From Massalongia carnosa (Eukaryota), in NCBI GenBank assembly GCA_965645245.1, contig OZ287083.1, forward strand, positions 1,550,001 through 1,614,000: DNA of 64,000 nt, given 5' to 3'. Numbering within the stretch: position 1 is the first letter of the stretch; the number at the start of each line of letters is the position of its first letter. A program made the position numbers and the translations under genes. The notes under the pieces are model-generated. The model saw nothing but the letters and a program-made list of their open reading frames with translations, did no database searches and was not told where the DNA came from. Positions 20,734-55,468 of the stretch are shown here, one piece after another.

Positions 20734-22758
20734 TCAAGCTAATCGCACGCCAGCTTGGCGATTCTTCTTCGCCGTCGCACCCATCGCATTGTTCATTCCC
20801 GTTGCCTGGCTGCTATCCAGCGAACTCTGAGCCTCCCGCTTCTTGTCATCCTCGATCTTCTTCAGATGCTTCTCCGTCTTCTGCTTCCCGCTGCCCTTGC
20901 CGTGGAACTGATGGCTCAGATGCTTGAACGCTTCCTTCTGGTTCATCGACCGCCCAAACTCGTCCACATACTTGAGCTGCACGTCCGGCTTGTACTCGCG
21001 GTTGAAAATTTCTGTCATCTGCCTCGATTCGAGCTGGTCGCGCTGCTTGTTCTCCCACCGTGCGTATTCCTCGCGCTCTCGAGCTGACATCCGGTCTAGC
21101 TTTCCGCTGGCACGGTCCCGCTCCCGCTGAAGCCGGGCTTTCCGCTCGGCGTCGGCCTCACGGCTCTGTTTTTCCGCAAGGAACTTCTGGCGCTCGCGAT
21201 GGAGCGCGTTGATGTCCCCTTCATGGGTTGGTTTAATGAGGCCTCGTTCTGATAGCATGGAGAGTGTTGCCCCAATGCCTCGGTTCAGTGTAGCCTCTTC
21301 TTCTAGTCCAGTCACCGTAAGACCGGGTGGCGCTGGTGTTGAGCCTTCACGAGTTGCCCTCCCATAAGGGTCCTCAACATCGGGAGTACCATTGTACGGC
21401 ATATCCATGTCAATATCTTGGTCTTCGACATCATCTGATATGGTATCCTTCTGGGTAATAGAGCTAGACGGGTTCACTGCCTTAGACTGTGGATTCTCGG
21501 ATTCTGTAGAGCGCTGCAAATTGGCAACAAACTCCGACGTCTCATCAATGACCAGGCCCCCCTCTTCTTCATGGACATCACCATTAAAGCCCCCGGGGCC
21601 AGAGGTGGCATTTACTTCTTCACGAAGATGCCGAGCAATGTCTTCTGGTTTCATCCTTTTACGTTTTTTCAATGCCGCTTGTCTTTGCTTTGCTAGAGAA
21701 GCTTGTAGCTCATCATCATCGGCTAAGAGTGTACCCGTTGTGTCTAACGCTGGCGACACCTTAATAGGGATGGAGTCTATCTCCATAGCAACTTTGTCCA
21801 CTGGCGTTTCCGTACCTGCCTCAAATGAGAGCATATCTTGGTCATCGGCAGCTTTTTGCCTTGTCGACTTTGCTTTCTTCTTCTTAGGCTTTCGGATCTT
21901 GCTTTCTACAACTGAAGTATAGTCGGAGCTTGGGGACTCTTTCGGGACATCTAAACTTATTGGCCTCACTTTAAGCTTTTCTTCAACTACCTGCCTCAAT
22001 GCTTCACGATTTTCAGCACTGATCCCTTGCCCGTCCAGAGTGAAACGTTTCCGCTTCTTGCCGTCAATCGTCTCATCGTAGTGTTTTAATAGAGCCGATT
22101 CACCTGTTTCGTCTATTTCATTGGGATTGTATACTGGCTTCTTTTTCTTTATCTCAAGCCTTTCATTCAGCGCCTCTCGCTCCTTCATATCAAAGTTCTC
22201 CAACTCATCGCCCTCCTCTTCGTTTTGGTCAATCGTTGCATCTTTGAGGGTTAGTATCTGCTCTCCCCCTTCCTCGAAATCTTCCACCTCGTGCCCGACT
22301 TTGACGCCGGCAAGATCCTCAGCAGTGTAAGAAGGCTCGTTTTCTCTTTCCGCAAGCTCTGTTTCTAGTCTGCGTAATCGCTCCCGCTCTAGCTTCTTCT
22401 GTCGCTTTTTCTGCTGCGCAAGCCATGTCTTTGTATCCAACTCTGTGACATCGTCGGCTTCTCCGAGTCCCTTTCCCTCCAGCTTAGAGTATTTTCGAGC
22501 TGCATCCCGAGCTTTCTTAATGGTCTCGTTCTTCGCTTCTCGCTGCGCTTTAGCATCCGCTTCACTCTGCAGCTGTTTCCAGTTGTCGTACCCTTGTGCT
22601 TGCCTTGACTCTAGAGTGCTCCCCAAATCCTCCTCTGAAGAATTCCCTTCTTCCTTTGAAGCTTTGAAGGTAGGCCCTTGTCCCGGGACTGGTAGCGGTT
22701 TAAGCCCGATGGCCACTCGGATCTTATTTGTTTCTTCGATAGATATGGAATCCGCCAT
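20734..22758 (-). CDS. SNU66: U4/U6.U5 tri-snRNP protein Snu66/SART-1
   Basis: HIND motif SIEETNKIR..IGLKPL; LAGVKVGH, ILTLKD, LKYVDEFGR..KEAFKHLSHQFHGKGSGK. Confidence 0.95.
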   Translation of the reverse strand: MADSISIEETNKIRVAIGLKPLPVPGQGPTFKASKEEGNSSEEDLGSTLESRQAQGYDNWKQLQSEADAKAQREAKNETIKKARDAARKYSKLEGKGLGEADDVTELDTKTWLAQQKKRQKKLERERLRRLETELAERENEPSYTAEDLAGVKVGHEVEDFEEGGEQILTLKDATIDQNEEEGDELENFDMKEREALNERLEIKKKKPVYNPNEIDETGESALLKHYDETIDGKKRKRFTLDGQGISAENREALRQVVEEKLKVRPISLDVPKESPSSDYTSVVESKIRKPKKKKAKSTRQKAADDQDMLSFEAGTETPVDKVAMEIDSIPIKVSPALDTTGTLLADDDELQASLAKQRQAALKKRKRMKPEDIARHLREEVNATSGPGGFNGDVHEEEGGLVIDETSEFVANLQRSTESENPQSKAVNPSSSITQKDTISDDVEDQDIDMDMPYNGTPDVEDPYGRATREGSTPAPPGLTVTGLEEEATLNRGIGATLSMLSERGLIKPTHEGDINALHRERQKFLAEKQSREADAERKARLQRERDRASGKLDRMSAREREEYARWENKQRDQLESRQMTEIFNREYKPDVQLKYVDEFGRSMNQKEAFKHLSHQFHGKGSGKQKTEKHLKKIEDDKKREAQSSLDSSQATGMNNAMGATAKKNRQAGVRLA

Positions 22759-23390
22759 GAGTGATGTGTAGGAGAAGGTTAGAATGTTTTGATCGGAATA
22801 AAGGTTGCTTAAGGCGAAGTTGATGTTCAGTACTCCACAGACACAGACGGGCGTTCGATGTTTAGGCAGATTCGCTTTCCCAAAAGAGGATAGTGATAAA
22901 AACCTTAACACATGAAACCCTTGTCATATATTCCGCAATCAAACACCTACTTTTGTACTCCGTATATAGGTCGGTCACCCGTCCCCGAATTGGCTTTAGG
23001 TTCAATACTTACTTACACGTTCAACAATACCGTGTGAGGCCCACGACCTGAAAATCCTCGTTGCGCTTCACTCTTGACAAAAAGGCTTGCGGTGTCTATT
23101 TCGGGCTTTCGCTTGGCTGACAACAGGTACTAAAGTTGAGATGCAGGGACTACGAAATAAAAAAATTTATATTTAAACTGAGCATTATAGCATGACATAA
23201 CTCACGTGGGAAATAACAGCACAAGTATCTCGCTAGGTTATGGCTTTTCATATGCATTATTGGTGGTATCCTCAACGATCATGTCCGTCCACTATTGATG
23301 CCACAGCAAGAAACACTAAGAACGCCATCCATATTGGCTTGTGAAATATATGTAAACACAGCTAAAGGGGCCATATACCATACACGGTCT

Positions 23391-31709: not shown

Positions 31710-34700
31710 ATGGCAGCCGTTGCGCCGGCGCAGTTCGACCGGCGGATGGTAGCTGTCGATTATACCTTGACCGAAAGCGCAGTGGACACCGAAAGAGAGG
31801 AGGATCTTCGGATTGATTATACCATGAGAGAAACTTTTAACGGGGAAGCACAAGACCTAAATGAGGGCGCTAAGGGAGATTCCAAGAGTGGAAGTAGGGA
31901 AGACGACGATCTTTTAGAGAATGAGGAAGACGCTGAAGAAGTAAGAATCTCTAGTAAGCACAGAGAAAGCGACGATGAGGTTATCGAAGAGGACTTGTCA
32001 GAACCGGAAGTAAGTAGCTTGGACAATGACCACGATACCGACAAGAGCTCTAGCGACGGGGAATCTGCGGTAGTGGCAGAGTGGGAAGGTGGAAGTGAAA
32101 CTGCGGAAATGGCTTCGGTTGCAAACCGAAACAACTGCGTGTTAGTGGTCCTCTACATGTCAGGGAGCGTTAACACGCTAACTCAGTCGATAGTTTCTGC
32201 GGTCAGGATGAGGAACATGATCCAAATGAAGAATTTGAGGAGTACATGGCATGTGCGGTTTGTGGGGATAATTGTAAGTGTTGAAACTGCTGAATTGAAT
32301 TGAACTGAGTGGAAAAACCATTGGATAATGATTAGCTTTGTTGATCTCCCGGTTTTGATTTTGCATTTCCAAACTAACCGACGCTGCAGCCCATCGGAAG
32401 TGTGCCCGAGACGCAAAGTCTCTTGGCTTCGATGATGGTGAGCGTAAAATCGTGTCAGCTTTTTGGTGATGACTAACATATTCTAGACCCAAATCAATGG
32501 AGATGTCAAGATTGTGTTGCTAACGCTCTCGAACCCGACAATACAGAAGAGACTGTCTCCCGAAGACGTGCCTCCGCGACTAAACTCACTCGAGACTTGC
32601 TGCCTCCCCAACGTGGCCCTTCAAGACCAGGCTCTCATTCAGTTTTCAATACTCTTATCCTCGACGATGATCCGCTGGATGGTTCTCGTTCGCTGCGGAA
32701 GCGCAAAGCTTCTTCCGATCAGGAAGAACCCACCGCCATGCCGAAAAGGCGTCGAAGGAACCAGGATACTATGATATCTGAATCGGGAATATCAACCTCA
32801 ATGGTGTTTTTGAATGATGTTAACTATGGGCTTGGCACCACTGATCCCATTCCTAGCGTAATGAACGAGAAGGCGGAAGCAGGGAGCACTTCGACACGGA
32901 AGTCCAGATCGTCCCGCGCCTCGAGGTCCCGGAGGTCCACAACCACTAACACGAAACCCGTCTCTATTATTAAAAATGTGCTGGAAAGCATAATCTTGGC
33001 ATTTCGACTAAATCCGACAAAATTGGCATCCATTCTGGAAATTGAGCCCAAAAAGAAGCGACGGCGACCTCCACGACGTCCTCCTGTGGAAGTACAAGAA
33101 GATGATAACCGTCCTACACCATCCTTCTCTACCCCGTATGCTACGCCGTTCTATTCGTTTCACGAGCGCGAGAACGATGATCTTAAATCAAAACCTTATG
33201 GTGGCATTCTGAGCGAAGCAGAGGCAGATACTTCGAAAACCCTACCTCTTGCAGCTGATAGAGCTCGATTCAACGATGCTCGTCAAAAGGCTGAAGATGA
33301 GTGGAAGCTGACAACCGCGACTCAAGATGCTGACGTAGAAATTAAAGGGCGATCGTCCCAGAAAGTGGCTGGACCACCGAGCAAAATTAAATGCGTCAAC
33401 TTCGGCGGCTACGAGATTGAGACCTGGTATGCAGCACCTTATCCCGAAGAGTACAGTCGAAATCGTGTGCTGTACATTTGTGAGTTCTGTCTCAAGTACA
33501 TGAATTCCGATTACGTAGCTTGGCGGCACAAGCTCAAATGCCCAGCAAAGCATCCACCTGGCGACGAGATATATCGAAGTAATTCGATCTCGGTGTTCGA
33601 GGTGGACGGGCGGAAAAACCCCGTCTACTGTCAAAACCTCTGTCTTCTTGCGAAACTATTTCTGGGTTCGAAGACCTTGTATTATGATGTTGAGCCCTTT
33701 CTCTTCTACGTGATGACTGAATACGATGAACTTGGGTGCCACTTTGTCGGCTATTTCTCCAAAGAAAAAAGACCCAGCAGCCAAAACAACGTGTCTTGCA
33801 TCTTGACGCTCCCAACCCATCAACGTAAAGGCTACGGGAACCTTCTCATCAGCTTCTCCTACCTGCTCACCCGCGTCGAAGGCAAGACCGGCTCGCCCGA
33901 AAAACCTCTCTCGGACATGGGGCTAGTCTCGTACCGCAATTACTGGCGTCTCGTCCTCTCTTACGAGCTCCTTAATCAAACCAAACCCCTCAGTATCATC
34001 GATATCTCCGAACGCACTGGCATGACGGCCGATGACATCGTTGCCGCGCTGGAAGCTTTGCGCGCACTTGTTCGTGACCCGGTTACGAGAACATACGCGC
34101 TCAGGCTGGACTACGCCTATTTCAAGCAATGTATCGAGAGCTGGGAGGCAAAAAGATATGTCACGCTAGATCCGAAAGCGCTTGTCTGGACCCCGTATAT
34201 TATGGGCCGGAGCAATCTGGCGCATTATGATCGCGCGCCCCCTCCACCTACCATTGCTCCCCGCGAAGGAGACGAAGACAAGAAAAGCGAGCCGGACGAG
34301 GGTGTGCAGGAGGCCACTATAACGGTTACAATTGCTGCAAAAGGGAAGCAGTCCACGCAAATCAGCGGCAGCGTTGTCTCTACCCCCGCCGCGGAGATCC
34401 CTTCAATGATCAATGGTGGCAGCACAAGTGTGCACCGCCAACCCCAAGACCAAGCCCTACCTCAGCTCCCCCCAAACCTGGATCCAGCCCTCTTTGCTCC
34501 TCCCTTGACAAAACCATCTCCACCTCCCCAGCCTCTCACCCCTGTCCAATCTAAATTCATCGCGCCCACCTCGACCATCATTCCCCCCGTCCGCTACGAA
34601 GTCTTTCCTCCAATCCCTGGCACCACGGCCCGTCGGCGCACCGGTGGGGGCCGAGGCTATCTTCGACGCTCGACGGCCGCCTCTGCTGCGAATGGGACTC

Positions 34701-35386
34701 CGAGAGCGGCTCGGACGCCGTTGCGCCGAGGCGGAAAAGCCTTGGGTAAGGGTAAAGGCAAGGGGAAATTATTAGAGCCTACCTCTGGGAAGGCGGCTGG
34801 GGGAAAGAGCGCTGGAAGGAGAACGAGGCTAAGCGGAATGATGGAGTTGGAAGGGGCGGTTGAAAGCAAGGGAAAGGGAAAGGAAGCCGCCGCAAATCTA
34901 GTTGCCACTGCTGCTGCTACGGACATGAGCTCAAATCTCGACCCCTCTTTCAATCACCAAGATCCGCAGTTAACCTTCGCCCCTGACCCTAACCCAGGCC
35001 TCGAACCGGACGCCGGTCCTGACCCCAACAACCCAACCGCCGACCTTGCAACGCAAATTCAAGGGGAGATCTCCCAAGGCATGCTCGACGAGGAGGATTT
35101 GGATGACGCGTTCGTTGACGCCAGTCCCGGAAGCGCGCTCGAGGAAGGAGGCGGTAGCACCAGCGGTCCCGACGACGACGAGGACGACGAGGACGACGAG
35201 GACAACGATAACGACGAGGACAACGATAACGACGATGGAGACCTAGGGGTGGCTGGGGCGAGCGACGCGGACGACGATGGCAAAGACGTGGATAGCGATG
35301 GCGATGGCGGCTTCGAGAACATGGATGTCGACAGCGACTCCACCGACGAGGACGAGGATGGAGATGTGCGTTCGGATCATGTTTGA
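31710..35386 (+). CDS. SAS3: MYST histone acetyltransferase with N-terminal PHD finger (Sas3/Mst2 type)
   Basis: Intron-split PHD (C.FC..CAVC..H..C..WRC..C); [55 protein letters not shown]; acidic tail. Confidence 0.92.
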
Positions 35387-36175
35387 AGGCCGACGCCGGG
35401 TAGAGTAAGGGTTGTACATTAAGTTCCCGATATTCCGCTGCTTGGGGGGGCCGGATTTGGAAGCCGCTATGAGATCCGAAGGGATCACGCATGAAAGGCC
35501 TGTGCTGTATAAAACAAATCCGTAACTCCGTCTTGGGGCTTTTGTATATTCATCCCTTCCCCGTCCTGTTCTGTTCTAAAAATTTTTTTTGAGAAAAAAA
35601 ACAAAAAAACAAAAATCCAGCTCGAGCTAATCGACCTTGATTTCATGACGTGAGGTATAACAAAAGGTGGGTGGATAAGAGAGAATTCAACATCCTACCT
35701 ATGTATCTACCTACCTCTTTCTCCCCCACTACACGAATACCTAGGTGAAGCTAGATTAACCCGAGTTTAACACTAGTCCGCTGCAAGCTTGCTAATTCAA
35801 TTTCCTTAATCCTCATGAGAAGAGAGAAAACCGGTGGCAGTTAGGCAAACCCGCTATCTTCTGAAAAAGGAAAAAAAAAAACCTCGTTGACCTTACATTT
35901 TCCACCCTTCCTCTTCCCCCCCCTCAAAAACCTTCTACAACTACACCCTGAAGCCCTATGGTTTTCATAAGGTGACGTTTTTTAAAAATATAGGGGGGGA
36001 AGGAGCAGCTAAAAGCTGGAGGTGGAAAGGGGAGGGAGGACGAAGAAGAAGATGAAGAAGAGAGGTGAGAGTTTTTGGAAATATATTGTTTTCTAAACCC
36101 AAAGGGAACAAAAAGAAAAAAATAAATCCTGGTAGCAGTGGGAGAAACGGAGAGATCTGGCTGTACATGCTATGT

Positions 36176-36201
36176 AGAGAGAGAGAGAGAGAGAGAGAGA
36201 G
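36176..36201 (+). repeat. (AG)13 microsatellite
   Basis: Perfect dinucleotide run in low-complexity intergenic DNA. Confidence 0.9.
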
Positions 36202-36965
36202 TAGTGATTAAGGTTAGAAACCTCCCCCCCCCCCCCAAAAACAAACAAAACCCAAGAAACGGCGCTGGACTCACCCAACGAGCTACCCAGCCTACGGTTC
36301 GTTCGGCTACCTCACTCATCCATCCATCCATCCCATCCATTCACGAAAGCCGAAGAACGGGGAATTTCACCCCCCATCCAGAACCCGTGGCCCGGGAAAC
36401 ACACACGTACCTAACTTCTCGATATCTCTAACGTGGTGAATGAAAGACTTGCTCCTGGATAGATAAGTGGATGGATGGCTTAGGGAAAATACCCCATTTA
36501 TCATCCGGTTTTAGGAGGTGCCGTTTTGTTGGATGAGAAGTAAGAGTGCAAGATATGCTGCTTGTAAATAGGTGGATATATGGCTGTAGGGGCTCATCTT
36601 TGGGTGGGGGGGGTTGGCTGGCTGGCTGGCTTGGGGAGGTGTTTAGAGCTTTTTGGTGAGTGGGTGTATCTGTGTAAACCCTGGTGGGCATTTAGCTACT
36701 TTGATGTGTTTTTTTTTTGGAATACTTTGCATCGATTCTGTTATTGGATATAGGGGTTTAATTGAAATGGATTGATTAGATATAATCAGTTGGAGGGAAT
36801 CTTGCAAAAACATTTTAGGAATCGACAAAACATGTAGCGTGGAACAATGCTTTTGTTCCGGTTACGAACTGTGAAATGAGCGAAGAGCCTTTTAACCGAA
36901 TGCAGAAAGCTAGAATGGTTTATAGAATGGCCCCTGTTGGGCAAACATGCTCTCTCGTAGAGGCT

Positions 36966-39900
36966 TTACCATGACCAAATAATGTCGTCGGGACCAGGTT
37001 CTGAGTCTATCTCATCAACGTTAGGCAGGAGGCAGCGCGCCATGTCAATATCGTCGGTGGGTCCAAGAAGCCGGTCGAGCATACAATCCTCCAAATACAG
37101 CAACCCCTGTGCCGTGCAGCTAGTAGCGATCCTCGCCGGCCGTATGTCGTTGCCAAAATTGTCTTCTATGGCCTCCTTGCTGGTCGCGAAGACGACCTGT
37201 TCGTTCCGAAATTTGATCCAACCGCCGTCTTTTTGCGGCTTTAGGAAAACGTAAGCTTTCGCTCCCTCCTTGCCGCCATGGTTGACTACGACTCTGTTTA
37301 CCATAAGCCTACATGCGCGGTTGCGGACATTCAAACAAAGCGGGGATAAATACCCATGCAAGATGTATCTGCGTGATCGAGTTTCCGCTCCATGCTGTTC
37401 TTCAATGGTCATCATTGGGGAGAACTCGATCCGGTCGTGCGCCTAGAGCCGTCAACGTGGCGCTCCCGGTGTCTTGGTTTCCATGATGACACACTTACCT
37501 TTTCCATTTGGTCCTTGTTGACGTCGTAATATATACGGGTGAGATATAGGACGAGAACAGGAGGTAGGGTTTGTACATAAACGGATTCATCGACAAGCCT
37601 CGAGCGGAAGGCCTCGATAGCGTTTTTAATTCCATAATCGCTCAGATGGATGACTATAAGAGCTTGTTAAAACCAAAATGCACTTTAAACAACGGGCAGG
37701 GTTATGGATACCCCAGGACAGCTCTGCATTCAGATATTTTCTGTATCGGAACGTGGTGCAAAAAAGATCCTGGATGCTTATCCCTTGGTTTTCCTTCAAG
37801 AGGTCGTCAAGGCGAGAAAGCAAAACTTCCAAGAATTGCAGCGGATCCTGCGGTTCAGATAGTTGCTGCTCCTCCCACCCAAAAGCTCTTGTAAGGTCTC
37901 TTGCCGATATAGCTTCCTCTGAAGTCTTCAAATGCGCAAAAACCCTTTTTAACGCAGGTATAAAACTTGGCCGGCTCCAGATTGCCGGCTGAAACAACGC
38001 CTTCGCGGATTAGCTAGATAGCCTCTGAGCGCATTGACTTACCTCGTGGATAGGGCGTAATATAAACAATAGCTGAAGGGTTGTGTTTAAATAACCTGTC
38101 TGGCCTTCATTGTGTATTCCTGTATAGCCGGTTGGCCGGCTCAAGTAGGAGTTAAAGTCCCTAGCCTGAATCTTACTTATGCGATCCCCACTCCTAGTCG
38201 ATGTCACTGAGAGCCTGGTGGAAGCCCAATTGAGTAGCTCGTCGCCATACTTGGCGCGTGCTTCTTCCCTTGCCCCGTTTTCTATTAAAAATAACACTGC
38301 CTCCATATGCCTACCCTTGATAGCCCAATCCAGAGAGGTCCATCCACTATCATCGCTTTCCTTTAGATCTGCGCCATTCTCAAGGAGTAATCGTAAAACT
38401 CCTACATGTCCGCTGCAGGCCGCTTGATGCAAAGCCGTTTCCCCATTATTGTTTATTTTTCTGACATTTACGTTCTTGTTAACAAGAAATCCAATGATAT
38501 CAACGTGACCCTGCCAAGCCGCAAGGAAAAGACCAGTTTCACCTTCATTACTCGTTTGATGTAGATCAATCAGGTTCAAAACAGATTCTTCCTCCAAAAT
38601 CTCCAACAATCCAAACGTACAAAGAGTGTGAAGCGGCGTTACCGGGGAACTCAGTATGGCTGCAAACTTATCTGCCAAAGGGTCACGAATATCTATGGCC
38701 GAGGATAGTTTACTTATAGAATGTATCCATTCAAAAAAGGGGCCACTATCATACGCCCCTCTAAAGAAGACACCCATGACTTTAAGTTTTATGGTGTCTC
38801 TCCGTTGATCGGGTCGAATTTTTCCATAATGCACAACCCAATATAACGTTGCGTATTCCCAGAGAATTGTATTTTTCTCCAGAGAAATCTGGGGCACCGC
38901 ACGCTCCGAAATTTGGGTCGAGAAAGAGACAGCGGTGAACTTGGAGGCATATACGTTTAGACATTTTTCAACAGCAAGAGAGTGAATAGCATCGAAAGAA
39001 TAATCAGAACGCCCTTCAAGATATTCCCGGACTGACAGGTGGGCCAATCTGAAAGTGTCAAGCTCGGTGTCCAGAACAACAAGATTACAACATAGACCGA
39101 GAATTTCCTCGCTTGATATCAGCTGACTGCTTTCCGCTATAGAGTGCGATGATACTGCCGATAAGAATTCGCTAGTGGATAATGGACGTTGAGCACAAAG
39201 CAGCCACTTTAGTGCGTTCTCTGCGATTGAACGCCCTTCTGATTCCAATTGTAGGATCTGAGCATAAACAGCTGTATAGAGGGCAGAGAGCGCCTTTGGA
39301 GGCCGGTCAAGAGCTTTTCTAACATCAGCATCAAGTCTCATGCGCCTAGGATCGCATAGATTTTGAATCTGAAGACTTGCCCATTGAAACCTAAGCATCA
39401 TCAGAATGGAAACTTTCTTGAGAGACAGAGATCTCACATTCCATGAGCTCCATTTATTAGCTTGGTAATGATGTAATCTTTTAGCTCCTCCGGGACTCTG
39501 CCATTTAGTAGTCTTTTATTACGAATTGCTTGCTCTACCTCGAGGTATATGAATCGATCAATGTCTTCTTTGTTCTCGTCTGCTTTGATGAAGATGTTTG
39601 GTAAGCCAGCCAGCCGAAGGACAATGTCCATATCATCTCGGCTTGATATCAACACTTTGATAAGACTAGCTGACTTATCAATTATCAGTTTCAATGCACT
39701 TAGCAATTCGTGCCTGCGTAATGGATCACATTCGTCAAGTGCATCAATAATTATGATTGCTGGATTCTGATCAGTAAGATCTAGAATAATCTCCGTGCAG
39801 TCTTCAATCGTTAATTTGGCAGGCTCGGATCCATCTTCTTCTGCTTCTTTGCGTCTCAATTGGTATTCCTGGAGCACAGGATCTCGAATAGGCATATCGG

Positions 39901-41681
39901 AGTCAGAGCAAGATAGCTGCTTCACAACTGCTCGTAAAACCTCACCAGGATCAGCACGCTTTGCTTCAGCCGCATTCCGGGCACAATAGAAATAGGCGAC
40001 TGGGGGTGAAGACGGATATTTACGTTTCTCGGTGAGAAACGTCTCTACAATTGTAGACACGAGCTTGGTCTTGCCCGAGCCTGGAATACCATGAAGCCAT
40101 AAGATAGACGACGCGCTCGAGCCTTTCCATTCAATATATTCCTCTTTGAGCTGAACCCAGGCCCCTGAGTCATGAAGTACTTCTTTCCACGAATTCTTGT
40201 GATGTTCTCGATAGGGAATAGTGGACATCCATCGAAATACCTCCAATCGTTCTTCTCGTTTGAGATTATCGTGTAACTCTGATACTTGGTCAATGATGCG
40301 CACAATTGGTTGCCGTAAGGTATCCAGAATTTGCTCTAATTTAGTCTCAATTACTGCAATCAATCTTCGATATTAGTACGTTGCCAGAAAGTTAGGTAGA
40401 AGTTTTAGATGATAGGCCAACTAAACCTCGAAGTGAGGGCGAGACTACTTACATTTTCGGCTGGTGTCGTTGCGGAGAGACAGCTCTTGCATGTCATTGC
40501 TGATCGTAGTAATAGTTTCATGAGTTGATGAAACGGCCGTTGCTATATCTCGTTGACCTAGTTGTTGTCAGAGTTCCCATGAGAGAAATTTGACCTTATT
40601 AAGACTAAATATTTTTCCATATAGTTTCTAATATGTTAAGAAAAAGGAACGTAATAACTTGGATTGACACAAAGACAACACAAAAAGACCTCCCGCAAAT
40701 TCGCGGCCTCTGCTCTCGGCGATATTCAACAACGACAATAATCGTAATGAACCCTACGGAATAATAGTATGGCTTACGTTCTGCATCCACTAGTTTGCCC
40801 CAATACTCGACCATATTTTGCTCCTCCGCAATCCGCTGAAGGAAGTTATCCACAGTGTCAGATGTCTGTATGATACTTTGTCCAATACGTTCTACCTAGC
40901 TTTAGCTAAGTGAAACCAACGGCTATGAATCATGGCTGTGTACGTACGAATGGTTCTCTTCTCGTAATATCGCCTGGCGTTCGCAAGGTAAGTTAAGATA
41001 GCGACATAAAGCCGAACCAATGCCTCCTCTAAATGACTCTTTGCCGCAGAGGCTTCCGTTAGGTAGACAATCTCGAATATTCTACTACGCACTACCAAGT
41101 TGGATACACGCTCCAAGCCTTCCGCCATGGTACCAAAAATAGAAACATCGTTGATTGCCATCTGAATGTATCATCTGTCAGCTCAGAATTTTCAGTACAA
41201 TATGTTGAAACGCCTATTCTACAACCAAAAAAAATAATACCTCGATAAAGAGTAAAGGACCTAGAACAAAAGGATTGCCCAAAGACCGGAAAAGGAGAAG
41301 ATACACACAAAAATCTTCTCTTGCCACGAAGCGGCGCAGGGGAAGCGTACCTACTTGTAGAAAGAAGCGTACAGCAGCCCAGGGCAACGCTGCATGGGAT
41401 GGATCGTATTGTACTGCTGCATCGCCGACTTCTTTGAATTTGCTCACCCAAGTTACAATTTTCTCGAATATGTCACGCAGAATAAGGACATCCCCATTAG
41501 CCTTTTTGTATTTCCAGCGTTTCTGCATACAGACATTTCTCTTTTCTTCTACAACGATCAAGACGTCCTCTATGATGCGTTGACTAGGTAGTCCGAAGTT
41601 GAGCTGCTGTTTATCATCTATCTTCAGCGTCGCTAATGCCAAATTCCACAGATCTCGAGAGTAATTCCCGCTGATAGCCAT
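36966..41681 (-). CDS. NLR-like STAND protein: N-terminal helical domain, NACHT, winged helix, ankyrin repeats, inactive USP7/Ubp15-like domain (1294 aa)
   Basis: Ten exons (41681-41355, 41161-40948, 40891-40778, 40557-40453, 40353-39438, 39390-38043, 38000-37712, 37653-37499, 37442-37354, 37293-36966), all GT-AG, total 3885 nt in frame. Walker A GIPGSGKT, Walker [10 protein letters not shown], 3-4 ankyrins, degenerate USP Cys and His boxes. Confidence 0.85.
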
Positions 41682-45101: not shown

Positions 45102-45768
45102 GCCAATTAATCTGTTGGACTTACGATTCCGAGCCAGCAACGGGAGAGATCTACCCTGGAGATAGTTAAAGTAATCTTGCTGTACCTAGCGGAGAAATCA
45201 CTGATAGTGAAGCTCCGCTGTTGAATTGGCGATGCCAAGGGCTACCTTACCTACAACGGTTAGATTATCGCCAAGACCTAATTCATCCAGCAGCTATCCT
45301 AGATACGTCATCCATAGAACTGGCAAGGGATTGTGCGAGGTCGTGGATTAAAATGGTTCGAGGTACTTTGTATCAGTATTCGAAAAAATCTGTTTGCATC
45401 CTTCAGAACTATCCATAGGCAAGAAGTCTGAGCTTTAAGGGCTTCTGTCTGACTTGATCCCAAAAGAAGGCATCATCGGACCATGTCCGCAACCTATTAA
45501 CTATTTGGAGGCATAACTAGTCTGCCTCTGCAAAAGTGTTGAGCCCCCATGAACCAACGCCTTCTGCTAGCTCGTGCAGACGTAATCTGATCAGAGTCAC
45601 AATCTGTTGATGTCGTTTGTTTCACAGCAGCTGCCATGATTCATGAACCGAACGACTGAGGCAAGCATTCCTCTGTCCAACTTACACCCACTTTGCTTTC
45701 CCCCTCTGAGTCTTGTATATCTATAACTATTCTTCTCCCAGCCGGGGTAACGGCAGACAGCAGCCATC

Positions 45769-48700
45769 ATGCTTGAAGGACTTTTTGCAAACCTGCTCAA
45801 TCGCTTCCTGGGCATGTACGTCAAAAATTTCGATGCCTCTCAATTGAACGTTGGTATATTGAACGGGAACGTTCAGCTACGGAATCTGGAGCTCCGAAAG
45901 GAAGCATTGGATCAACTACATCTACCAGTCAATGTTGTCGAAGGTCATCTTGGCCATCTCACCATGTCAATACCGTTCACAAATCTGCGAGGGAAGCCCG
46001 TGAAAATCAACATTGAGGATATCTTTCTTTTAGCTGCTCCTAAAGAAGACGCAGAATACGATGAGGACGAGGAAGCAAAGCGGGCACATGCCGTTAAGAT
46101 GGAGAAGCTGGAGAACGCAGAGCTTTTGAAGCAAAGGAGCACTGAAGGCCTAAGCCACGAGGAGCAGCAAAAAAGCCAGAGCTTCACCGAGAGCCTCACT
46201 ACTGCTATCATAGATAATCTTCAAGTTAGTATTAAGCGTATACACATCCGTTATGAGGATTCGATGTCCGCGCCCGGCCATCCGTTTGCTCTTGGTCTTA
46301 CGTTACAAGAGTTCAGTGCCGTAAGTACCGATAAGGACTGGGTACCGAGCATGATACAATCGTCGTCGGGGACTACCAATAAACTAGTGCGCCTTGGGGC
46401 TTTGGCCTTCTATTGGAATACTGACGCATCATTGTTTGGAACGGGTAAAGGCGCAGCGGTTGGTGCAGAGGCACAGAAAACAGATCATGATGCAGTGATC
46501 CGGAGATTCCGAGAGGGTTTGGAAAGTGGTGCTACGCAGCAATACATGCTGAAGCCTGTCAGCGGTCGCGCCGCAGTTGAAATGGACAAATCAGGGAAGA
46601 CCGATAAGCCCAAAATCAAGGCTCGATTGATATTTGAGGAAATTGGGTTTGTCTTGGACGATGATCAGTATCGCGATGCTTTGATGATGGCTGACCTATT
46701 CCATTATTTTATCCGTCACCAGGAGCACAAGAAATCTCGACCAAAGAAACCGCCAAAAGAAGATCCAAAAGCATGGCTTAGGTTTGCGTTTAATGCAGTC
46801 ATCAAAAAAATCCATGACCGAAACCGGCAATGGACAGGGGAATACGTGATTGAGCGACGAGATAACAGGCTTCGATACATCGAGCTGTTCAAGAAGAAGA
46901 AGCAAGAAGCAAAGATGACGCCTGCTGAGACCGAGGAGCTTCAGAGCTTGGAGAGGAAGCTTAGCTATGAGGATTTGCGATTTTGGCGGTCTCTTGCTCG
47001 AAATCAGCTTCGCAAGGAGAATGTAGGACTTAAGAAGCCTGCTCAAAAACAGACTTGGACGCAATGGGCTTGGGGAGGCGGTAAGAAGGCAGAAAAAGGA
47101 CACATAGACGGGGAAAGCTCCGAAATGTCAGAGGAAGAGCGGAAAGCGCTTTATGATGCTATCGATTGGGACGAGAAGAAAGCCATATCCGACAGCGTTG
47201 ATCTACCCCGCGAAAGCGTTAAGTTGCAGGTTGAGTCATCTCTGCGGACTGGGAGTTTTACACTCAAGCGCGACCCTCATGGAAAAGCCACCGAGATCCT
47301 AAGTTTGATGTTCGATAATTTTCAAGCCAGGGCTATACAGCGACCAGACTCTTTTCTTGCAGACTTGAGCCTTGGTGGTCTTCGTGTTAACGATGGTACA
47401 ACAGAAGGTAGTCTGTTTCCTCAGATTGTCAACTTCAAAGATGCAAACCCACAGCTCAACGACAAGTCTCTCGAGCAAATAAGTACAAGTGACGATGACC
47501 CTGACGAAAAGAGGGCTAAGGAAAAGGCAACTCAGGATGCGCTGTTCCACCTTATTTTTGAACAAAACCCTTTGGATGACAGTGCAGACTCGGCATTGAA
47601 TTTGAATCTTAAGAGTCTGGAGGTTGTATACAATCCGCGGTTTGTTGTCGAGGTAGCCAAATTCTTCAAACCCCCAGAGAGGCACATGGAGTCCATCGGG
47701 GCTCTTCTGGAGACAGCAGGAGCTACAGTGGAGGGACTTCGACAGCAGACAAGGGCAGGTCTGGAGTTTGCGCTCGAAGAACACAAGACCCTTAACGCTA
47801 ATCTGGACATCCAAGCGCCATTGATCATAATACCCGAAAGTATCACCTCTGAAAGCACTTTATGTTTGATCTTGGATGCTGGTCATGTTAGTCTTAAGAG
47901 TGAACTTGTTGGTAAGGATACTATGCGAGATATACAGTCAAAACAAAAGAAACAGTACAGCGATGAAGACTTCAAGCAGCTTGAGGGGCTGATGTATGAC
48001 AAGTTCTTGTTGAAACTAGACTCGACCCAGGTTCTTATTGGGCCTGGTATTCAAGCTACTAAAGACCAGCTACACATCAAAGATGACTCAAAGAGTCTTC
48101 ACATAATAGATCGTATTAGCATGGATTTCATTTTGGAAACCTCTATAATCCCGAAAGCTGCAGACTTGACAAAAACCCGCGTCTCTGGCCATCTCCCTGT
48201 TTTGCATGCGTCGATATCGGATAAGAAGTACAGAAATTTGATGAAGTTGATCGATATTGCGATACCACAGTTTGACACCGACGAATCCCTAGAAGACGGG
48301 ATACAAGCGCCATCAAACACGAACAAAATTCTATCTCCCGAAAAATTCAGGACTGAGGATGCTTTGAGCAGACCCCGCTCTAAGTCTTTCTCTGCGCCTG
48401 CGCACCAGGATCTTGTCTTGGAGGACGATAGCGATGAGGAAGGCAGCCATAACCACAAGGATGATGCAAAGGAATCCGGTAGTGATAGCAATTTCCATCA
48501 GAAGAATTTTGAATTCAGATTCACTGTCGATAAACTACAGGGTTCCCTATATCGGTCGGATGCAGATGGAAAACAACCTGATGAGCTACTAGTTGAATTG
48601 GTTGCTGAACATTTTCAGCTCGACTTTTATTTACGCCCTTATGACATGGTAGCAAAGGTGTTGTTGAAATCACTAAATGTGGAAGACCACATAGAGGCTG

Positions 48701-51700
48701 AGCCGAGTCCTGAATTCAAGCAAATAATATCCAGCCGAGGCTTTGATGCGAATGAGGAGAAGGATCTATTCAATATTCGGTTTATCAAGGTTAACTCACA
48801 GTCGCCGGAATTCGAATCGATATATGAAGGAATCGCAACAAACTTGAATGCATCGATATCAACTTTAAACCTAGTTGTAACAAGAAAAACTTTACTGACG
48901 CTGCTCGACTTTGTTTTGGTCACTTTCGCCGGCCCAGATAATTCACCTACACAAAAAATCGAAGAAGTACCTCACTCAGGAGACGGGAAAGAATCCAAAG
49001 TGCCTACCAAGGTAGCGCCAGGCTCGGATAAGATCCGTATCAAAGTTGACCTTCAAAGCATTTCCTTGATACTCAACAATGATGGTATCCGTCTTGCTAC
49101 TCTAAGCTTGAACGTTGCTGATGTCAGCATCTTTTTATACGAAGGAACCCTACGAGTGGGAGCTCGGCTCGGAAATCTTTCTCTCCTCGATGATATTAAC
49201 CAGGGAGCTACAGTAGATTCGCCGTTACGTCAACTGATCACAATCCAGGGGGATGAACTCGCAGATTTCAAGTATCAGACCTATGACGCGAACAGCGACT
49301 CCTACCCTGGATATGATTCGAAGGTATTTCTCAGGTCTGGGTCTATCAAAGTAAATTTCTTAGAAGAGCCCTTTCGCAAGATCTTCAACTTCCTTGTAAA
49401 GTTTGGGAAAATGCAAGCAATTTTCAACGCAGCACGTCAGGCCGCAGCAAATCAAGCAAGCCAGATACAGGAAAGCGCAAGTAAAATGCATTTTGATATT
49501 CTCATTAAAACTCCTATTCTTGTATTTCCCCGCGTAATGGTCGCAGAGAAACCTCGAGATCTCATCACCGCATACTTAGGTGAAATATATGCTAGCAATA
49601 GGTTTGCAACTCTGAAGGAATCAGGCGACGAAGTGAATAAGCTTTCGGCTGGTATCAGAAATGTCCGCTTGACTTCGGACTTCCATTATGAAGAAAACAG
49701 ACACGAAGAGCTTGAAATGATCGACAAGGTAGATCTTGACTTTAAAGTGGTTTATGCGGAACATGTACAAGGTACATCCAGGCCTGATATAGAGGTGAAA
49801 GGGGACATGTCTCCTATCAACCTTTGTATAGCTCAGACTCAGTTAAAATTTCTGATGGAGCTATCTAAGACTGTGCCAAATGCTTTTGGAACGGATCTGG
49901 AGAAAGATGAGGAAAATATTTTGCAAGAGCTACCCCAGTCCACGACTGAGCCGGCACGAAGGCTTATTCAAAAAGAGCCCAGAGATGATGAGAAAGTAGA
50001 GCCTCCAATTTACCAGGGACCAGAACTTGACCCCCGTAGCGAAGCTTGGATTAAGCTTGACTTTGTCTTCAAAGCAAAAAAGATTGGATTGGAGCTAATT
50101 CTTGCCAAAGAAGAAGAACCTATTGGGGATCTGGAATCAGCCAGCTTGTCTAAATTTGCGCTGAATGATACTAATGTCAGGCTTCGAATGAAAAGTGATG
50201 ATTCCTTGGAGTCTGAACTCTTGATCAACTCCTTTACGATTAAAGATAGTCGCACAAGGGAATCCAATAAATTCCGAAAAATTATGTCGCTTATCAACGA
50301 TGATGTAAAGCAGCAGTTTATGGCTAGTGTCACAATATCAGGAGGAATTAATCGACATCTAATCGCCATGCTTACTGTTGATAGCCCACGAGTTATATTT
50401 GCGATGGATTATCTCTTTGCTGTTCAATCTTTCGCAGCCACGGCCTTTTCTCCAGAAGAGACGCTTGATGTAGGTAGTGCTTTGGAAAACGACATCACCA
50501 CCTCCGAAGAATCCGATAGTGGCGTTAGTACACCCGTTGGAAGGGAAGAGTTGAAAGTGCAAGTGAAGCCTGAAGTCTCTGTCGACGAGGATCCCATGAG
50601 CATATCATTCCGCATAAATGTTATTGATGCACAAGTCATTTTAATAGCAAATCCTGCTATTTCGAACTCCGAGGCAATTGTTCTTGGAACGAAACAAGTG
50701 CTTGTATCCCAACAAAATGCGTCGACATTGCAAGTCACAAAAGTTGGAATGTTCTTGTGCCGAATGGATAAATTTGAAACCAGCCGGTTAAGAATTCTTG
50801 ATGACTTTTCGATTCAGATGTCCATGGATAGTCGTTCCCACGCTAAGAAAGCTGCCTTGACTAGTATATCGGTAGATGTTGAGCCTCTGGTTTTGCGCCT
50901 ATCCTTGCGCGACATTTTGCTTGCCCTGCAGATTGTCAACCGGGCCTCTGAAATGACGAATAATGTTAGCGCACAGGTGGAAGATTCGGAGCCAAAGAAA
51001 ATCACTGAGATTAAAGAAACTACCGCCACGTCTATAAAGCGCAGGTCTCTCGCTGGAAAGCCAACGTCAACCATTGCAGGGAAGACAAGTAGGTCCGTAA
51101 CCTCAAGTAAACCAGGCAAGAAGGAAACACAGAAACCTAAAACTTCAGAAGTTATGAAGCGGGAAGAGTTAACTGCCGAGCTCGAAGGCATTAGGATTAT
51201 TCTCATTAGCGATCTGCATGAGTTACCACTTCTTGATTGGAGTGTGAAGAAATTCAACGTTGACATTCGAGACTGGTCTAGTGCTATGACTGGAGATACG
51301 AGCTTTCACACATACATCAACGTTTATAATTTTTCCAAGTCAGCCTGGGAGCCATTGATTGAGCCATGGCAGCTCGGCTTCCATTTGTCGAAGGACCAAA
51401 ATTCCGAGCTTTTGTCGGTAGAGGTCTATTCTCATAAGATGATGGAACTCACTGTTACCTCAGCCACTATTGCATTAGCATCGAAGTCAGCTCAGTTTCT
51501 TTCCACAGATGAAGACGTACTTTCAAAACCACGAGGTGCGGACTCACCTTATAGAATACGAAATTATACCGGATTTGAAGTAAATGTATGGGCAGCGACT
51601 CGGGAAGAGGATCAGGGGTCTGCCGCAAAACTTAGCGATGGGGAAGAAGCACAGTGGCGCTTCGAGGATGCAAGCACAATGCGGGAAAGTCTTTCTCCGG

Positions 51701-54700
51701 AAGGAAGCACTGGCGTTATAGGGATGAAGCTTGAAGGTAGCGGCTTTGACAGTATTGATCGCATCCCGGTAAATCGCGAGGGAGAAACCCTTTATATTCT
51801 AAAGCCAAGGAAAGATAGAGTACTACATCGGCTGCTTGTGGAAGTAAAACTAGGTACCGACAATGTGAAGTACATCACTCTACGGTCTCCTCTTGTGGTC
51901 GAGAATAATACGCAGATCCCTGTGGAAATGGGAGTTTTCAGTCCTGAGGAGGGACATTTACTTAAGATTGAGAAAATCCCTCCTGGAGAAGCTCGACCAG
52001 CACCTGTTGGTGCTGCTTTCATGCATTCCCTTGTCGTTCGACCTGATCAAGGCTTTGGTTATTCGTGGTCTAACCAGCGGCTTTTTTGGAAAGACCTTCT
52101 CAAACGACCAACTCGACCAATTACATGCAAAAGCGAAAACAACGATCAATCACCCCCCTTTTACTTCCAGATGAACGCCTCTTTTGATAAGAACGATCCA
52201 CTAACGAAGCAGAGTGTATATCCATATATGCGGATACGACTTGCAGCACCAATCGAACTCCAGAATCTTCTGCCTTATGACTTCAAGTATCGTATTTATG
52301 ATAAGAATACAAAAAAAGACTGGACCAACTTCCTCAGAAAGGGCGGTGTGAGCCCAGTTCATGTCGTAGAACTGTCACATGTCTTGTTGCTGAGTATCGA
52401 GATGCAAGATACCGTGTTCAAGCCAAGCGAGTTTGCAGTGATTAATTCAAATTCCCAAGATGATTTTCATCGAGAGTCTATACTTCCTGTCAAGGATAAT
52501 CAAGGCATATTGATGAAGCTGAAGCTTCATTATTTGTAAGTACTCTGCCCAGGATCCAGAGTTTTGCTAATGTGAGCCTAGCAATGTTCCCGATAGTGGA
52601 GGCGCTTTCAAAATAACGGTGTATAGCCCATATCTCGTTTTGAATAAGACCGGCCTGGATATCAATATCCAAAGCAAAAGCTTGTTCTCTGCGGCTAAAT
52701 CAGCGGCTGGCCAAGGTGTACGCATGAACTCAGATCGTGGAATTCGTAAGGCGTTGCCCTACATGTTTTCCTATCCTAACGACGATCGTAAAAACCGCAC
52801 AATTCTCAAGGTCGGAGATTCCGCGTGGAGTAAGCCGCAAAGCTTTGATGCTATCGGTAGTACATTTGATGTCGTCCTCCAGTCATCAGACTCGAAATCA
52901 GAATTGCATGTTGGCATTTCTGTAGCAGAAGGCGAGGGTAAATACAAGCTGACTAAGGTCGTCACTGTTGCACCCAGATTCGTACTGAAGAACAAGCTCA
53001 GCGAGGAGATCAACGTTAGGGAACCGGGCTCTTCCAATTGCGCGGTGCTTAAACATGGGGAGCTCTTACCACTTCATTTTATGAAGCCTACCCGTGAAAA
53101 GCAGTTATGTGTTTGCTTTCCAGGCGTCAACAACCAGTGGTCTTCACCGTTCAATATTTCCAATCTCGGGACTTCTCACGTGAAGCTTGCCAAAGCAGGT
53201 GAACGCCAACAGCTGGTCCGGGTTGAGGTCATCATGGAAGCTGCTACCATCTTCCTTCATCTAAGTATTGAGACGAAACATTGGCCTTTTTCAATGCGTA
53301 ACGAGAGTGATATAGAATTCATGTTCTATCAAACAAATCCTAATGTCGAGGAGGGCGAAGAAGACAGATCTTCAGGCTGGCGTCCCATACGTTATCGTCT
53401 CCCTCCCCGAAGTATTATGCCTTACGCTTGGGATTATCCTGCCACGAAGAACAAGGAGCTTGTTTTAAGTGCACAGGGCAAAGAAAAATGGGTCAAGCTT
53501 GCAGAAATTGGCAATCTAATCCCAATGAAGCTGGCGCCAGCGCAAGGATCGAAGCAGCCAAAGATTATAGACATTAACATTACCGCAGATGGACCGACTC
53601 AGACTTTGGTGCTATCAAATTACAAGTCCTCAAAGAGTTTATACAAGCAAAAATCCGTCCAAGCGTCTCAAGGCAGCGTAGTCACTGGATTCGAGGTTAA
53701 AGAAATGGAGAGCGAAGTGACATTCAAGGCCCAGCTTCGTTTTGCAGGTATTGGAATATCTTTGGTTAACAAAAACCTCAAGGAGCTACTTTACTTCACC
53801 TTTCGTGACATTGAGCTCAAATACAGTGATTCACGGCTGTATCAAACTTTCAACTCAACTATCAAGTGGATCCAGGTCGATAACCAGCTGTACGGGGGGA
53901 TTTTCCCTATTCTTCTGTACCCAAGCGTCGTGCCTAAGACCGGCAAGGAGATGGAATCTCATCCTATTTTTCATTCTATGGTTACTCGAGTCAAAGACGA
54001 CTCCTATGGTGTTCTGTACATCAAGTATGCTACGCTGCTTCTTCAGCAGATGACTCTTGAACTCGATGAAGACTTTATTTTCGCCATGCTTGACTTCACG
54101 AAAGTACCCGGGGCGTCATGGTCTGAAGAGCATGAGGGTAAATTATGCGATGAGGATCTGGATATTCCCGAACCACACCAAGAACAGCAAGGTCAAGATG
54201 TATACTTTGAACTCCTTCATTTACAGCCCATGCAGCTGGACCTATCTTTTGTCCGAACGGAACGTATCAACGCCGAAGACACCATGCAGACGTCGAATCC
54301 GCTGATGTTCTTTGTCAACATCATGACCATGTCCATCGGAAACGTCAATGATGCGCCATTACGCCTAAACGCCCTGATGTTAGAAAATGCCCGTGTATCA
54401 ATACCCGCTTTGATGGCGAATATCCAAAGCCATTACACCCAAGAATGTATTCGGCAAATTCATATTGTTCTTGGTTCCGCGGATTTCTTAGGCAACCCTG
54501 TTGGTCTTTTCAACAATGTGAGCTCCGGTGTTGCCGACATCTTTTACGAGCCTTATCAAGGGTTGGTCATGACAGACCGGCCACAAGAGTTAGGAATTGG
54601 CATTGCGAAAGGTGCTTCTAGCTTTGTCAAAAAGTCGGTGTTTGGATTTTCTGACAGCATGGCCAAGTTCACTGGCAGCATGTCCAAAGGCCTAGCCGCT

Positions 54701-55468
54701 GCGACGCTAGATAAGGAATACCAAGACCAGCGACGGATGTCGAAGTCCAGGAACAGACCAAAACACGCACTATACGGTGTTACCTCTGGGGGAAATGCTT
54801 TCGCTACAAGTATGGCCAGCGGAATTGGAGGGCTGGCCCGTCATCCCTTGGAAGGTGCCGAAAAGGAAGGGTTGCAAGGGTTTGTCAAAGGCGTCGGGAA
54901 AGGCTTTCTTGGCCTGGCAACCAAACCTGCGATTGGGGCATTTGACCTGGCTTCTAGTAAGCATGCATTTCTGCTGATTCTCATCACGAATATGCTAACC
55001 CGGTATTTAGACGTGGCCGAGGGCGTCCGCAACACGACTACAGTATTCGATGCTGATGGGCTCGATCGTGTACGTCTCACCCGCTTCATCGGCATGGATG
55101 GTATTGTCCGGCCTTACGCCCAACGAGAAGCTCTTGGTCAATTCTGGCTTAAAACTCTCGACGACGGCAAATTCTTCAACGAAGACTATATTGCGCACCT
55201 CGAGCTCCCGGGCAAGGACTTGCTCGTCATGCTGACGTACAACCGCATCATGCTCGTTAAGACCAAAAAGCTGAAGGCCGAGTGGGACATCAAACTTAAC
55301 GATATCCAGACAATTTCCAAGGAGCGCACGGGCATGTCGATCACACTCAAGGGTGGCACTAACGGGCCGTTCATTCCGGTGCAGGAGGAGAGTTCACGCA
55401 ATTGGCTCTACCGTCAGATTGGTATTGCCGTCAATGCATTTAATGACAAGTACAACGCCAAGGGATGA
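45769..55468 (+). CDS. VPS13: Bridge-like lipid transfer protein Vps13
   Basis: Chorein-N MLEGL.ANLLNRFLGMYV, WEPLIEPW, VAB repeats, GSADFLGNPVGLF, C-terminal PH region. Introns 52536-52581 and 54957-55010. Confidence 0.97.

Follow-up and report, generated by a model that had tools for sequence, protein, structure and literature searches.

A 64-kb stretch of the Massalongia carnosa genome (64,000 nucleotides (nt) of contig OZ287083.1; hereafter the window) carries on its minus strand a gene that reads as an intact NACHT-type fungal NOD-like receptor (NLR), with intact Walker A and Walker B motifs and C-terminal ankyrin repeats, and that continues behind these repeats into a domain resembling the catalytic domain of USP7/Ubp15, a ubiquitin-specific protease (USP). 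To judge by its sequence, this domain is homologous by descent to the USPs (peptidase family C19), yet it has no canonical Cys-His-Asp/Asn triad, and its catalytic activity has presumably been lost. The gene belongs, as a divergent and basal member, to a small family found in the databases solely as hypothetical proteins, and the C-terminal domain is quite probably a maintained sensing module without catalytic function. That this pseudo-deubiquitinase serves as an integrated decoy, by analogy with such domains in other NLRs, is a real possibility, short of an even chance, and it is the reading that we favour.

A USP7/Ubp15-like domain at the end of an NLR

The stop-to-stop open reading frames (ORFs) of the minus strand form a chain of open blocks from 41723 to 36966, in which we modelled 10 exons (41681-36966) that sum to 3873 nt including the stop and encode 1290 amino acids (aa). 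Exon junctions were placed by reading frame and GT-AG sites, and Pfam was run on single exons or ORFs. Each of the nine introns is GT..AG, with lengths of 47-220 nt, the sole stop stands at the end with no internal one, and the model is collinear with relatives (tblastn; family alignment). An earlier first-pass annotation, made from the letters alone, had also described ten stop-free exons, which stands, but had summed them to 3885 nt; the gap of 12 nt leaves the frame and the USP part as they are. A single ORF of 501 aa (39515-38013) runs from the winged helix through the ankyrin repeats to the USP Cys-box motif (16 residues), and since ankyrin repeats and Cys box lie in one uninterrupted exon, the fusion is independent of splicing. 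That two adjacent genes were misjoined in the model is therefore extremely improbable: the ankyrin-USP junction falls within one exon and one ORF, and the same domain order occurs in independent annotations of more than 20 relatives. What speaks for such an artefact is the lack of RNA evidence for the window gene and the weak support for exon 4 with its preceding 220-nt intron, the least certain part of the model, a short divergent linker outside the tblastn coverage of the relatives. On single exons the candidate N-terminal effector domain reaches the DUF7708 cut-off just so (25.2 against 25 bits) and stays below that of NACHT_N, a Goodbye-like profile (PMC9815663), with a weak match of exon 1 (E 7e-4). 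Intron 9 (37294-37353, minus strand), 60 nt long, is in frame and free of stops, and its retention would add 20 residues in the USP His-box hairpin while keeping the frame; with the intron removed, YILHG-VVVNHGG aligns without a gap to the relatives.

The peptide strings quoted in the first-pass annotation were all found on the minus strand, and its proposal of a NACHT-ankyrin NLR continuing into a USP7/Ubp15-type domain of about 320 aa is borne out by Pfam matches for the NLR part and by PDB and profile matches for the USP part. The spliced window model scored 255 bits over aa 973-1258 against a profile hidden Markov model (HMM) of 11 relatives from which the window had been excluded (HMM positions 3-304 of 314); with a second profile, made from 13 true Ubp15/USP7 domains, it scored 152 bits. 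Pfam UCH (PF00443) matched single window exons at 22.0 and 12.2 bits, with a cut-off of 23.9. The last exon alone (108 aa) matched only USP7 chains in PDB, 26 of them at E 7.6e-9 to 5e-8, the next match lying at E 0.55. For the USP part of a relative (P0017), PDB gave USP7 at E 2.6e-30 over the whole catalytic domain, followed by USP28 as the next family at 1e-10. By these scores the resemblance to USP7 is far above chance level. In sequence and, for P0017, in structure, the best match is the catalytic domain of USP7/HAUSP/Ubp15 (PDB 1NBF, 5KYE and others), in which the same blocks follow each other in collinear order: Cys box, Q-D-x-x-E, LPPVL, His box and KF-x-x-x-V. The window domain differs from it in having Gly, Lys and Arg as its triad, in lacking the MATH and the ubiquitin-like (UBL)/ICP0-binding domains, and in being fused behind an NLR.

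We take C223, H464 and D481 to be the catalytic residues of USP7. In the alignment of the last exon, the G-G-H-Y box has its His paired with Lys, and the first Asp of K-F-D-D-D is paired with Arg, and in the alignment of P0017 a Gly stands opposite the Cys of the USP7 N-Q-G-A-T-C-Y box. The replacements proposed at first pass, Cys>Gly, His>Lys and Asp>Arg, were confirmed codon by codon (Table 1). The triad is replaced across the family as well, for which we aligned the window model with 14 relatives, the His and Asp columns being covered by 12 NLR rows. At the Cys column 13 of 14 NLR rows have Gly and one has Asp (Cys, 0/14), whereas at least 12 of 13 Ubp15 rows have Cys; the His column holds Lys in nine rows, Arg in two and Asp in one (His, 0/12), and the Asp column holds Arg in eight and Gln in four (Asp, 0/12). 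Database searches along the lines of the survey for NACHT, ankyrin and UCH and for the state of the triad that had been suggested at first pass found a family with these residues replaced.

Two sequence features mark the Teloschistales relatives. They (P0017, P0019, P0023, P0032, P0045, P0122, P0123 and others) share a conserved Cys in TGC[IV]GI, 10 residues before the lost nucleophile, where the window and Psora, like USP7, have Tyr; and all Teloschistales members end in a conserved tail, A-R/K-V/T-M-V-P, which the window does not have. The domain might still be a protease working through non-canonical residues, as an enzymatic effector or as a regulator of the NLR, and such activity would find a precedent in the triad-less USP52, and possibly USP39, which are reported active in parts of PMC10919355, and a candidate residue in the Teloschistales Cys. 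We consider this very unlikely, given the Tyr of the window and Psora at that position and the count of His or Asp at their triad positions, which is none in 12 rows.

The fold was predicted for a relative. AlphaFold2 was run on residues 926-1244 of P0017, which is 37% identical to the window in the USP domain, with a 24-row alignment, and gave a mean predicted local distance difference test score (pLDDT) of 86.2 and a predicted template modelling score (pTM) of 0.88. Foldseek against PDB found as best match 1nbf_A (USP7; E 5.9e-26, template modelling (TM) score 0.80, 28% identity), and the top ranks listed were all catalytic-domain structures of USP7. A USP fold is thus confidently predicted to be kept in this family member, in line with the C19 fold match expected at first pass.

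Relatives in lichen-forming fungi and descent of the domain

The search with the 501-aa ORF for longer proteins returned 11 proteins, among the 120 matches listed, that join UCH with NACHT_N/DUF7708, NPHP3_N/NACHT and ankyrin repeats, and the source of all 11 is lichen-fungus assemblies. Their domain order is NACHT_N/DUF7708, NACHT, winged helix, ankyrin, UCH. UCH lies above the Pfam cut-off in each (31.9-85.9 bits) and covers nearly the full profile in seven; DUF7708 exceeds its cut-off in 10 and NACHT_N in nine, and four of the 11 are truncated gene models. The search with the USP part of P0017 yielded 28 proteins, 10 NLR fusions followed by 18 of USP7/Ubp15 type at 23-32% identity, most of which carry MATH, UCH, USP7_ICP0_bdg and USP7_C2. 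MATH/TRAF and the USP7 UBL domains (USP7_ICP0_bdg, USP7_C2) are absent from the window ORFs and the 11 relatives, whereas P0124-P0137, which are true orthologues, have them.

Searching 1.84 billion cluster representatives with a profile returned 9249 matches at E up to 1e-3, which amounts to the USP superfamily, and at the top added only more fragments of the NLR-pseudoUSP kind. Six such fragments were scanned with Pfam; all have ankyrin and UCH, and three have the winged helix too. Gly stands at the Cys position in all seven fragments that span the Cys box. No stand-alone or otherwise fused member of the pseudo-USP clade was found among these cluster representatives. Six long, high-ranking matches (P0142, P0144, P0149, P0150, P0151 and P0179) were rejected as clade members, being canonical tandem UCH arrays that rank high because scores sum over domains; with 4-10 tandem UCH domains in 1800-3200 aa they have an unusual architecture of their own, P0142 reaching 10 UCH stretches and 1720 bits. 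The lobster protein P0051 ('ankyrin-3-like'), the twelfth UCH-bearing match to the 501-aa ORF, has ankyrin and UCH without NACHT, a separate ankyrin-USP combination in animals. A metagenome scan with P0023 found no relative, and one with window exon 6 found a single 2161-bp contig that matches 80 residues of the NACHT/winged-helix junction only.

Named carriers of the architecture amount to at least 20 lichen-fungus proteins. They include Psora crenata (Lecanorales) and Letrouitia (Teloschistales) as well as Xanthoria parietina, X. calcicola, X. aureola, X. steineri, Gallowayella, Xanthomendoza, Caloplaca, Variospora, Squamulea, Usnochroma, Polycauliona, Ikaeria, Wetmoreana and Pyrenodesmia, and the genera from Xanthoria to Pyrenodesmia in this list are presumably Teloschistaceae. 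As the comparison of their proteins shows, the predicted fusion is retained in lichen-forming Lecanoromycetes, in at least two orders and in the window lineage.

We reconstructed a tree of the USP domain (25 rows; quick IQ-TREE, LG+G4). All 12 NLR domains form one clade, with 100 support in the Shimodaira-Hasegawa-like approximate likelihood ratio test (SH-aLRT), which is nested among the Ubp15 sequences of Dikarya fungi. Its stem measures 1.2 substitutions per site, and its end branches, at 0.06-1.9, are mostly several-fold longer than those of ascomycete Ubp15 (0.14-0.2), with a long-branch warning for P0011 and P0123. Window and Psora stand outside the Teloschistales crown in an unresolved mutual order. 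The second tree (33 rows) was built from N-terminus, NACHT and winged helix (window aa 20-760), excluding the USP part. In it, all 16 fusions fall into one clade (SH-aLRT 97), with the window branching first, then Psora, then Teloschistales; P0077, a protein of 935 aa without a UCH match that may be a truncated model, also belongs to this clade, and UCH-less NLRs of Geoglossomycetes and other fungi fall outside it. The window branch is about 2.6 times as long in the USP tree as in the N-terminus/NACHT tree (1.14 versus 0.44). The two trees are compatible, suggesting that the catalytic domain of a Ubp15 was integrated once and then retained vertically. Together with the searches they show that the predicted C-terminal domain descends from Ubp15/USP7, its catalytic domain being nearest to USP7 among the USPs.

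Over N-terminus, NACHT and winged helix, the closest proteins are UCH-less NACHT_N-NACHT-ankyrin NLRs of Geoglossomycetes and Lecanoromycetes (for example P0009 of Glutinoglossum and P0001 of Trichoglossum). P0009 is 51% identical to the window over 686 columns of this region, and both proteins end in more ankyrin repeats where the window has the USP domain.

Identity between the window and its relatives is 53-57% in NACHT, 42-47% in the N-terminus, 34-40% in the winged helix and linker, 32-43% in the ankyrin repeats and 27-39% in the USP part, so that the C-terminal regions, the USP part included, diverge at about the same pace. In 13 Ubp15/USP7 sequences 136 columns are near-invariant, with one residue shared by 12 or more of them. 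At 48 of these columns at least 75% of the NLR rows still carry that residue; the window keeps 53 and has changed 83. Many of the altered columns are fixed to one new residue throughout the clade, among them Q to E beside the oxyanion Asn, C to G, H to K/R, D-D-D to R/Q-N-E, G to S and M to G. Such clade-wide fixation of new residues points, at the protein level, to constraint on the new sequence and not to drift, and supports the view that the domain is being maintained rather than decaying. A relic left by a chance fusion and decaying under neutral evolution could be read from the long branches and from the loss of about 65% of the Ubp15-invariant residues. We hold this to be highly improbable, as the five USP exons of the window are free of stops and frameshifts, the fusion persists in the window lineage, in Psora and in Teloschistales, many substitutions are clade-fixed, the fold of P0017 is predicted with confidence and the relatives match the full-length Pfam profile. 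The first-pass annotation had called the domain maintained from its open frame, and the retention of the fusion, the clade-fixed columns and the USP fold of P0017 agree with it.

The same annotation knew of no described fungal NLR with this architecture, a statement that no longer holds in view of the at least 20 lichen-fungus proteins and of a 2024 preprint on Xanthoria parietina, one sentence of which mentions an NLR whose C-terminal domain is a USP-like, papain-like protease. Probably this is the X. parietina member of the P0023 cluster, which has the domain order of the window family, falls into the same clade in the USP and NACHT trees, and has Gly at the Cys, Lys at the His and Gln or Arg at the Asp position. 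It shares 37% identity with the window over the USP part and 54% over NACHT, and the window stands at the base of the family. The passages of the preprint that we consulted mention neither the lost triad nor the USP7 origin nor the conservation, and the literature we searched, including the Starship paper on Xanthoria, gave no account of the lost triad, of the USP7/Ubp15 origin, of a single integration or of conservation throughout Lecanoromycetes. The architecture had thus been noticed once, in X. parietina; for the dead triad, the USP7/Ubp15 origin and the conservation, our searches found no earlier report.

Coordinates and genomic surroundings

The features of the gene and of its surroundings are listed in Table 1. 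Within the 64-kb window the gene lies outside any NLR cluster, among ordinary genes, which besides those of the table include an aminotransferase, an AKAP7-type 2',5' RNA ligase-like protein and a DUF3429 protein. For SART-1, a housekeeping ORF, the best matches that bear a name are all Lecanoromycetes, with Pseudocyphellaria aurata (Peltigerales) first at 75% and Umbilicaria, Lasallia and others behind it, which assigns the window to this class. Fungal LysM proteins, such as the one predicted near the end of the window, are often secreted and chitin-binding. Both transposase ORFs sit where the window is most AT-rich. An AG/CT dinucleotide microsatellite (about 36090-36210), roughly 750 bp past the stop of the NLR gene, translates into SLSLSL or ERERER.

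Table 1. Positions in the window of the NLR gene, its parts and the neighbouring features
Feature	Position	Strand	Basis or remark
Whole coding region, NLR-pseudoUSP	36966..41681	-	10-exon model
Exon 1, start of Goodbye-like N-terminal domain	41355..41681	-	ATG at 41681; start aligns with N-termini of relatives
Exon 2, DUF7708 / NACHT_N part	40948..41161	-	DUF7708 25.2 bits, cut-off 25
Exon 3	40778..40891	-	collinear with relatives
Exon 4, after longest intron (220 nt)	40453..40557	-	frame, GT-AG sites, length match to relatives
Exon 5, NACHT/NPHP3_N NTPase domain (about 40168-39638)	39438..40353	-	NPHP3_N E 1.3e-34, NACHT E 1.6e-8
Walker A, GIPGSGKT	40090-40067	-	intact, exon 5
Walker B, IIIDALDE	39754-39731	-	intact, exon 5
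Exon 6, winged helix, ankyrin repeats and USP Cys box	38043..39390	-	one open frame
Winged-helix domain, GPI-inositol-deacylase type	about 39242-39015	-	GPIID_WHD E 6.7e-9
Ankyrin repeats	about 38640-38180, best Pfam stretch 38531-38268	-	Ank_2 E 3.3e-37, 3 stretches
USP7/Ubp15-like pseudo-deubiquitinase domain, aa 973-1290	36969..38150	-	end of exon 6 and exons 7-10
Gly991 (GGT) at catalytic Cys position	38094..38096	-	model and family alignment
Exon 7, USP thumb region, Q-D-x-x-Q/E box	37712..37988	-	UCH E 1.4e-4, exon alone
Exon 8, LPPVL strand region	37499..37653	-	UCH E 0.14, weak
Exon 9	37354..37442	-	followed by 60-nt intron 37353-37294
Exon 10, His box, Asp box, C-terminal tail and TAA stop	36966..37293	-	PDB matches USP7 only
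Lys1194 at catalytic His position	37257..37259	-	model and PDB alignment
Arg1211 at catalytic Asp position	37206..37208	-	model and PDB alignment
MULE/ZSWIM RNaseH-like transposase ORF, 537 aa	6826-8439	+	
DDE_Tnp_1_7 (piggyBac-type) transposase ORF, 546 aa	9818-11458	+	E 7.7e-51
SART-1	20734-22923	-	
MYST acetyltransferase	32477-35386		
VPS13	45751-55468	+	two giant ORFs, 2262 and 965 aa, about 30 nt apart, presumably one short intron
LysM protein	62530-63456	-	308-aa ORF, LysM E 2.7e-17

Possible roles of the pseudo-deubiquitinase

Plant NLRs with integrated domains (NLR-IDs) can carry copies of housekeeping enzymes in which catalysis is disabled and evolution accelerated, and the pattern seen in the window is alike. 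The predicted protein has one hallmark of an NLR-ID, a non-canonical, host-derived domain joined to a complete NLR. A decoy in the full sense would also require that effectors target the parental host protein and that the receptor is activated when they bind its integrated copy. We place the domain at the sensing end of the receptor because the C-terminal region of fungal NLRs is taken, in part of PMC12258605, as the ligand-binding and autoinhibitory part. In an integrated decoy, the copy of the Ubp15/USP7 catalytic domain, with the triad lost and the fold kept, would be the non-catalytic recognition module of the receptor. A foreign protein, whether from a pathogen, a mycovirus, a symbiont or a non-self fungus, whose usual target for binding or modification is the catalytic domain of Ubp15 would bind the mimic instead, which would relieve autoinhibition and let the NACHT domain oligomerise; the Goodbye-like/NACHT_N N-terminal domain might then execute the response, probably cell death. 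The sensor role, the decoy logic and the downstream signalling are all conjectured here.

The nearest parallel within fungi comes from Sordariales, in whose T-NACHT/ankyrin NLRs, according to part of PMC12258605, CHK2-derived kinase domains C-terminal to the repeats are putative integrated decoys. As in the window gene, the domain that follows the repeats of a complete NLR is a copy from a housekeeping protein with a single-copy gene, and in both families the integrated domains are monophyletic, suggesting one integration event each. The window family differs in its integrated domain, which is a USP7 catalytic domain with the triad lost, and in its lineage, the Lecanoromycetes. The terms UCH, ubiquitin and USP7 are absent from the main text and from 13 of the 17 supplementary files of PMC12258605, and UCH or PF00443 from the main text of the fungal NLR effector survey PMC9815663.

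Several points weigh against an integrated decoy. Our analysis points to no foreign protein that targets Ubp15 in fungi, and viral binders of USP7 are known to act on the MATH or UBL domains, neither of which is integrated here. With just 48 of 136 Ubp15-invariant columns kept, the mimic would be a poor copy of the Ubp15 surface. The fold prediction comes from a relative of 37% identity and not from the window's own spliced protein. For the window gene no transcript evidence was found, as the four matching runs are unspliced DNA contigs, which are silent on expression and splicing. Finally, that the domain is dead we only infer: activity in the absence of a canonical triad has been reported for USP52 and possibly for USP39.

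The main rival, which we rate as somewhat unlikely, is a sensor of ubiquitin or ubiquitin-like proteins, in which the domain would bind ubiquitin, a ubiquitin-like protein or a C-terminal tail of that kind without cleaving it, so that the NLR would fire on abnormal ubiquitin species, for example invader-made or mimicked ones. In keeping with it, the USP fold is kept, the length of the BL2-loop region differs by at most one residue, and the acidic pair of the Q-D-x-x-E box, which we presume to contact the ubiquitin tail, is kept in P0017; its Asp is present in nine of 12 NLR rows and its Glu in seven, the window having Asp and Gln. Two thirds of the Ubp15-invariant columns are altered, which argues against ubiquitin binding, as does the pseudo-USP USP39, whose N-terminal zinc-finger domain cannot bind ubiquitin according to a passage of PMC10919355.

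The domain might also be a structural or regulatory module only, an autoinhibitory lid or an oligomerisation surface that caps the ankyrin array and recognises nothing foreign. Pseudo-deubiquitinases are described as scaffolds or allosteric partners in part of PMC10919355, and the domain stands in place of the distal ankyrin repeats of the UCH-less P0001 and P0009. We nevertheless find such a module decidedly unlikely: the long end branches of the USP domain, with the window's USP branch exceeding its NACHT branch by the factor given above, fit sensor regions better, although this is not decisive. USP39/Sad1 and USP52/PAN2, which in the same source likewise combine a USP fold without canonical triad with non-catalytic scaffold roles, differ from the window domain in being ancient, universal parts of the spliceosome and of the deadenylase that neither derive from USP7 nor are joined to an immune-type STAND NTPase.

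To our knowledge, almost nothing is known about the ligands of fungal NLRs. An NLR with a recognisable, disabled copy of a host enzyme provides a concrete ligand hypothesis, namely something that engages the catalytic domain of Ubp15/USP7 or ubiquitin tails, and the pseudo-USP domain could be used as bait in pull-downs. With this family the short list of USP pseudoenzymes would gain one derived from USP7, and the family would extend the logic of integrated domains, well studied in plants and recently proposed for Sordariales, to another class of fungi and a different integrated domain. Its retention across lichen-forming Lecanoromycetes makes it a candidate player in the recognition of partners or pathogens in the lichen symbiosis. 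That lichen-forming fungi have kept a disabled copy of the USP7/Ubp15 catalytic domain as immune-receptor bait since before the split of Teloschistales and Lecanorales is a doubtful yet serious possibility. If so, it would imply that the fungal USP7 orthologue, or the handling of ubiquitin at its active-site cleft, is recurrently targeted by pathogens, mycoviruses or symbiotic partners, and the family would be the first conserved fungal integrated-decoy NLR with an identifiable guarded host hub.

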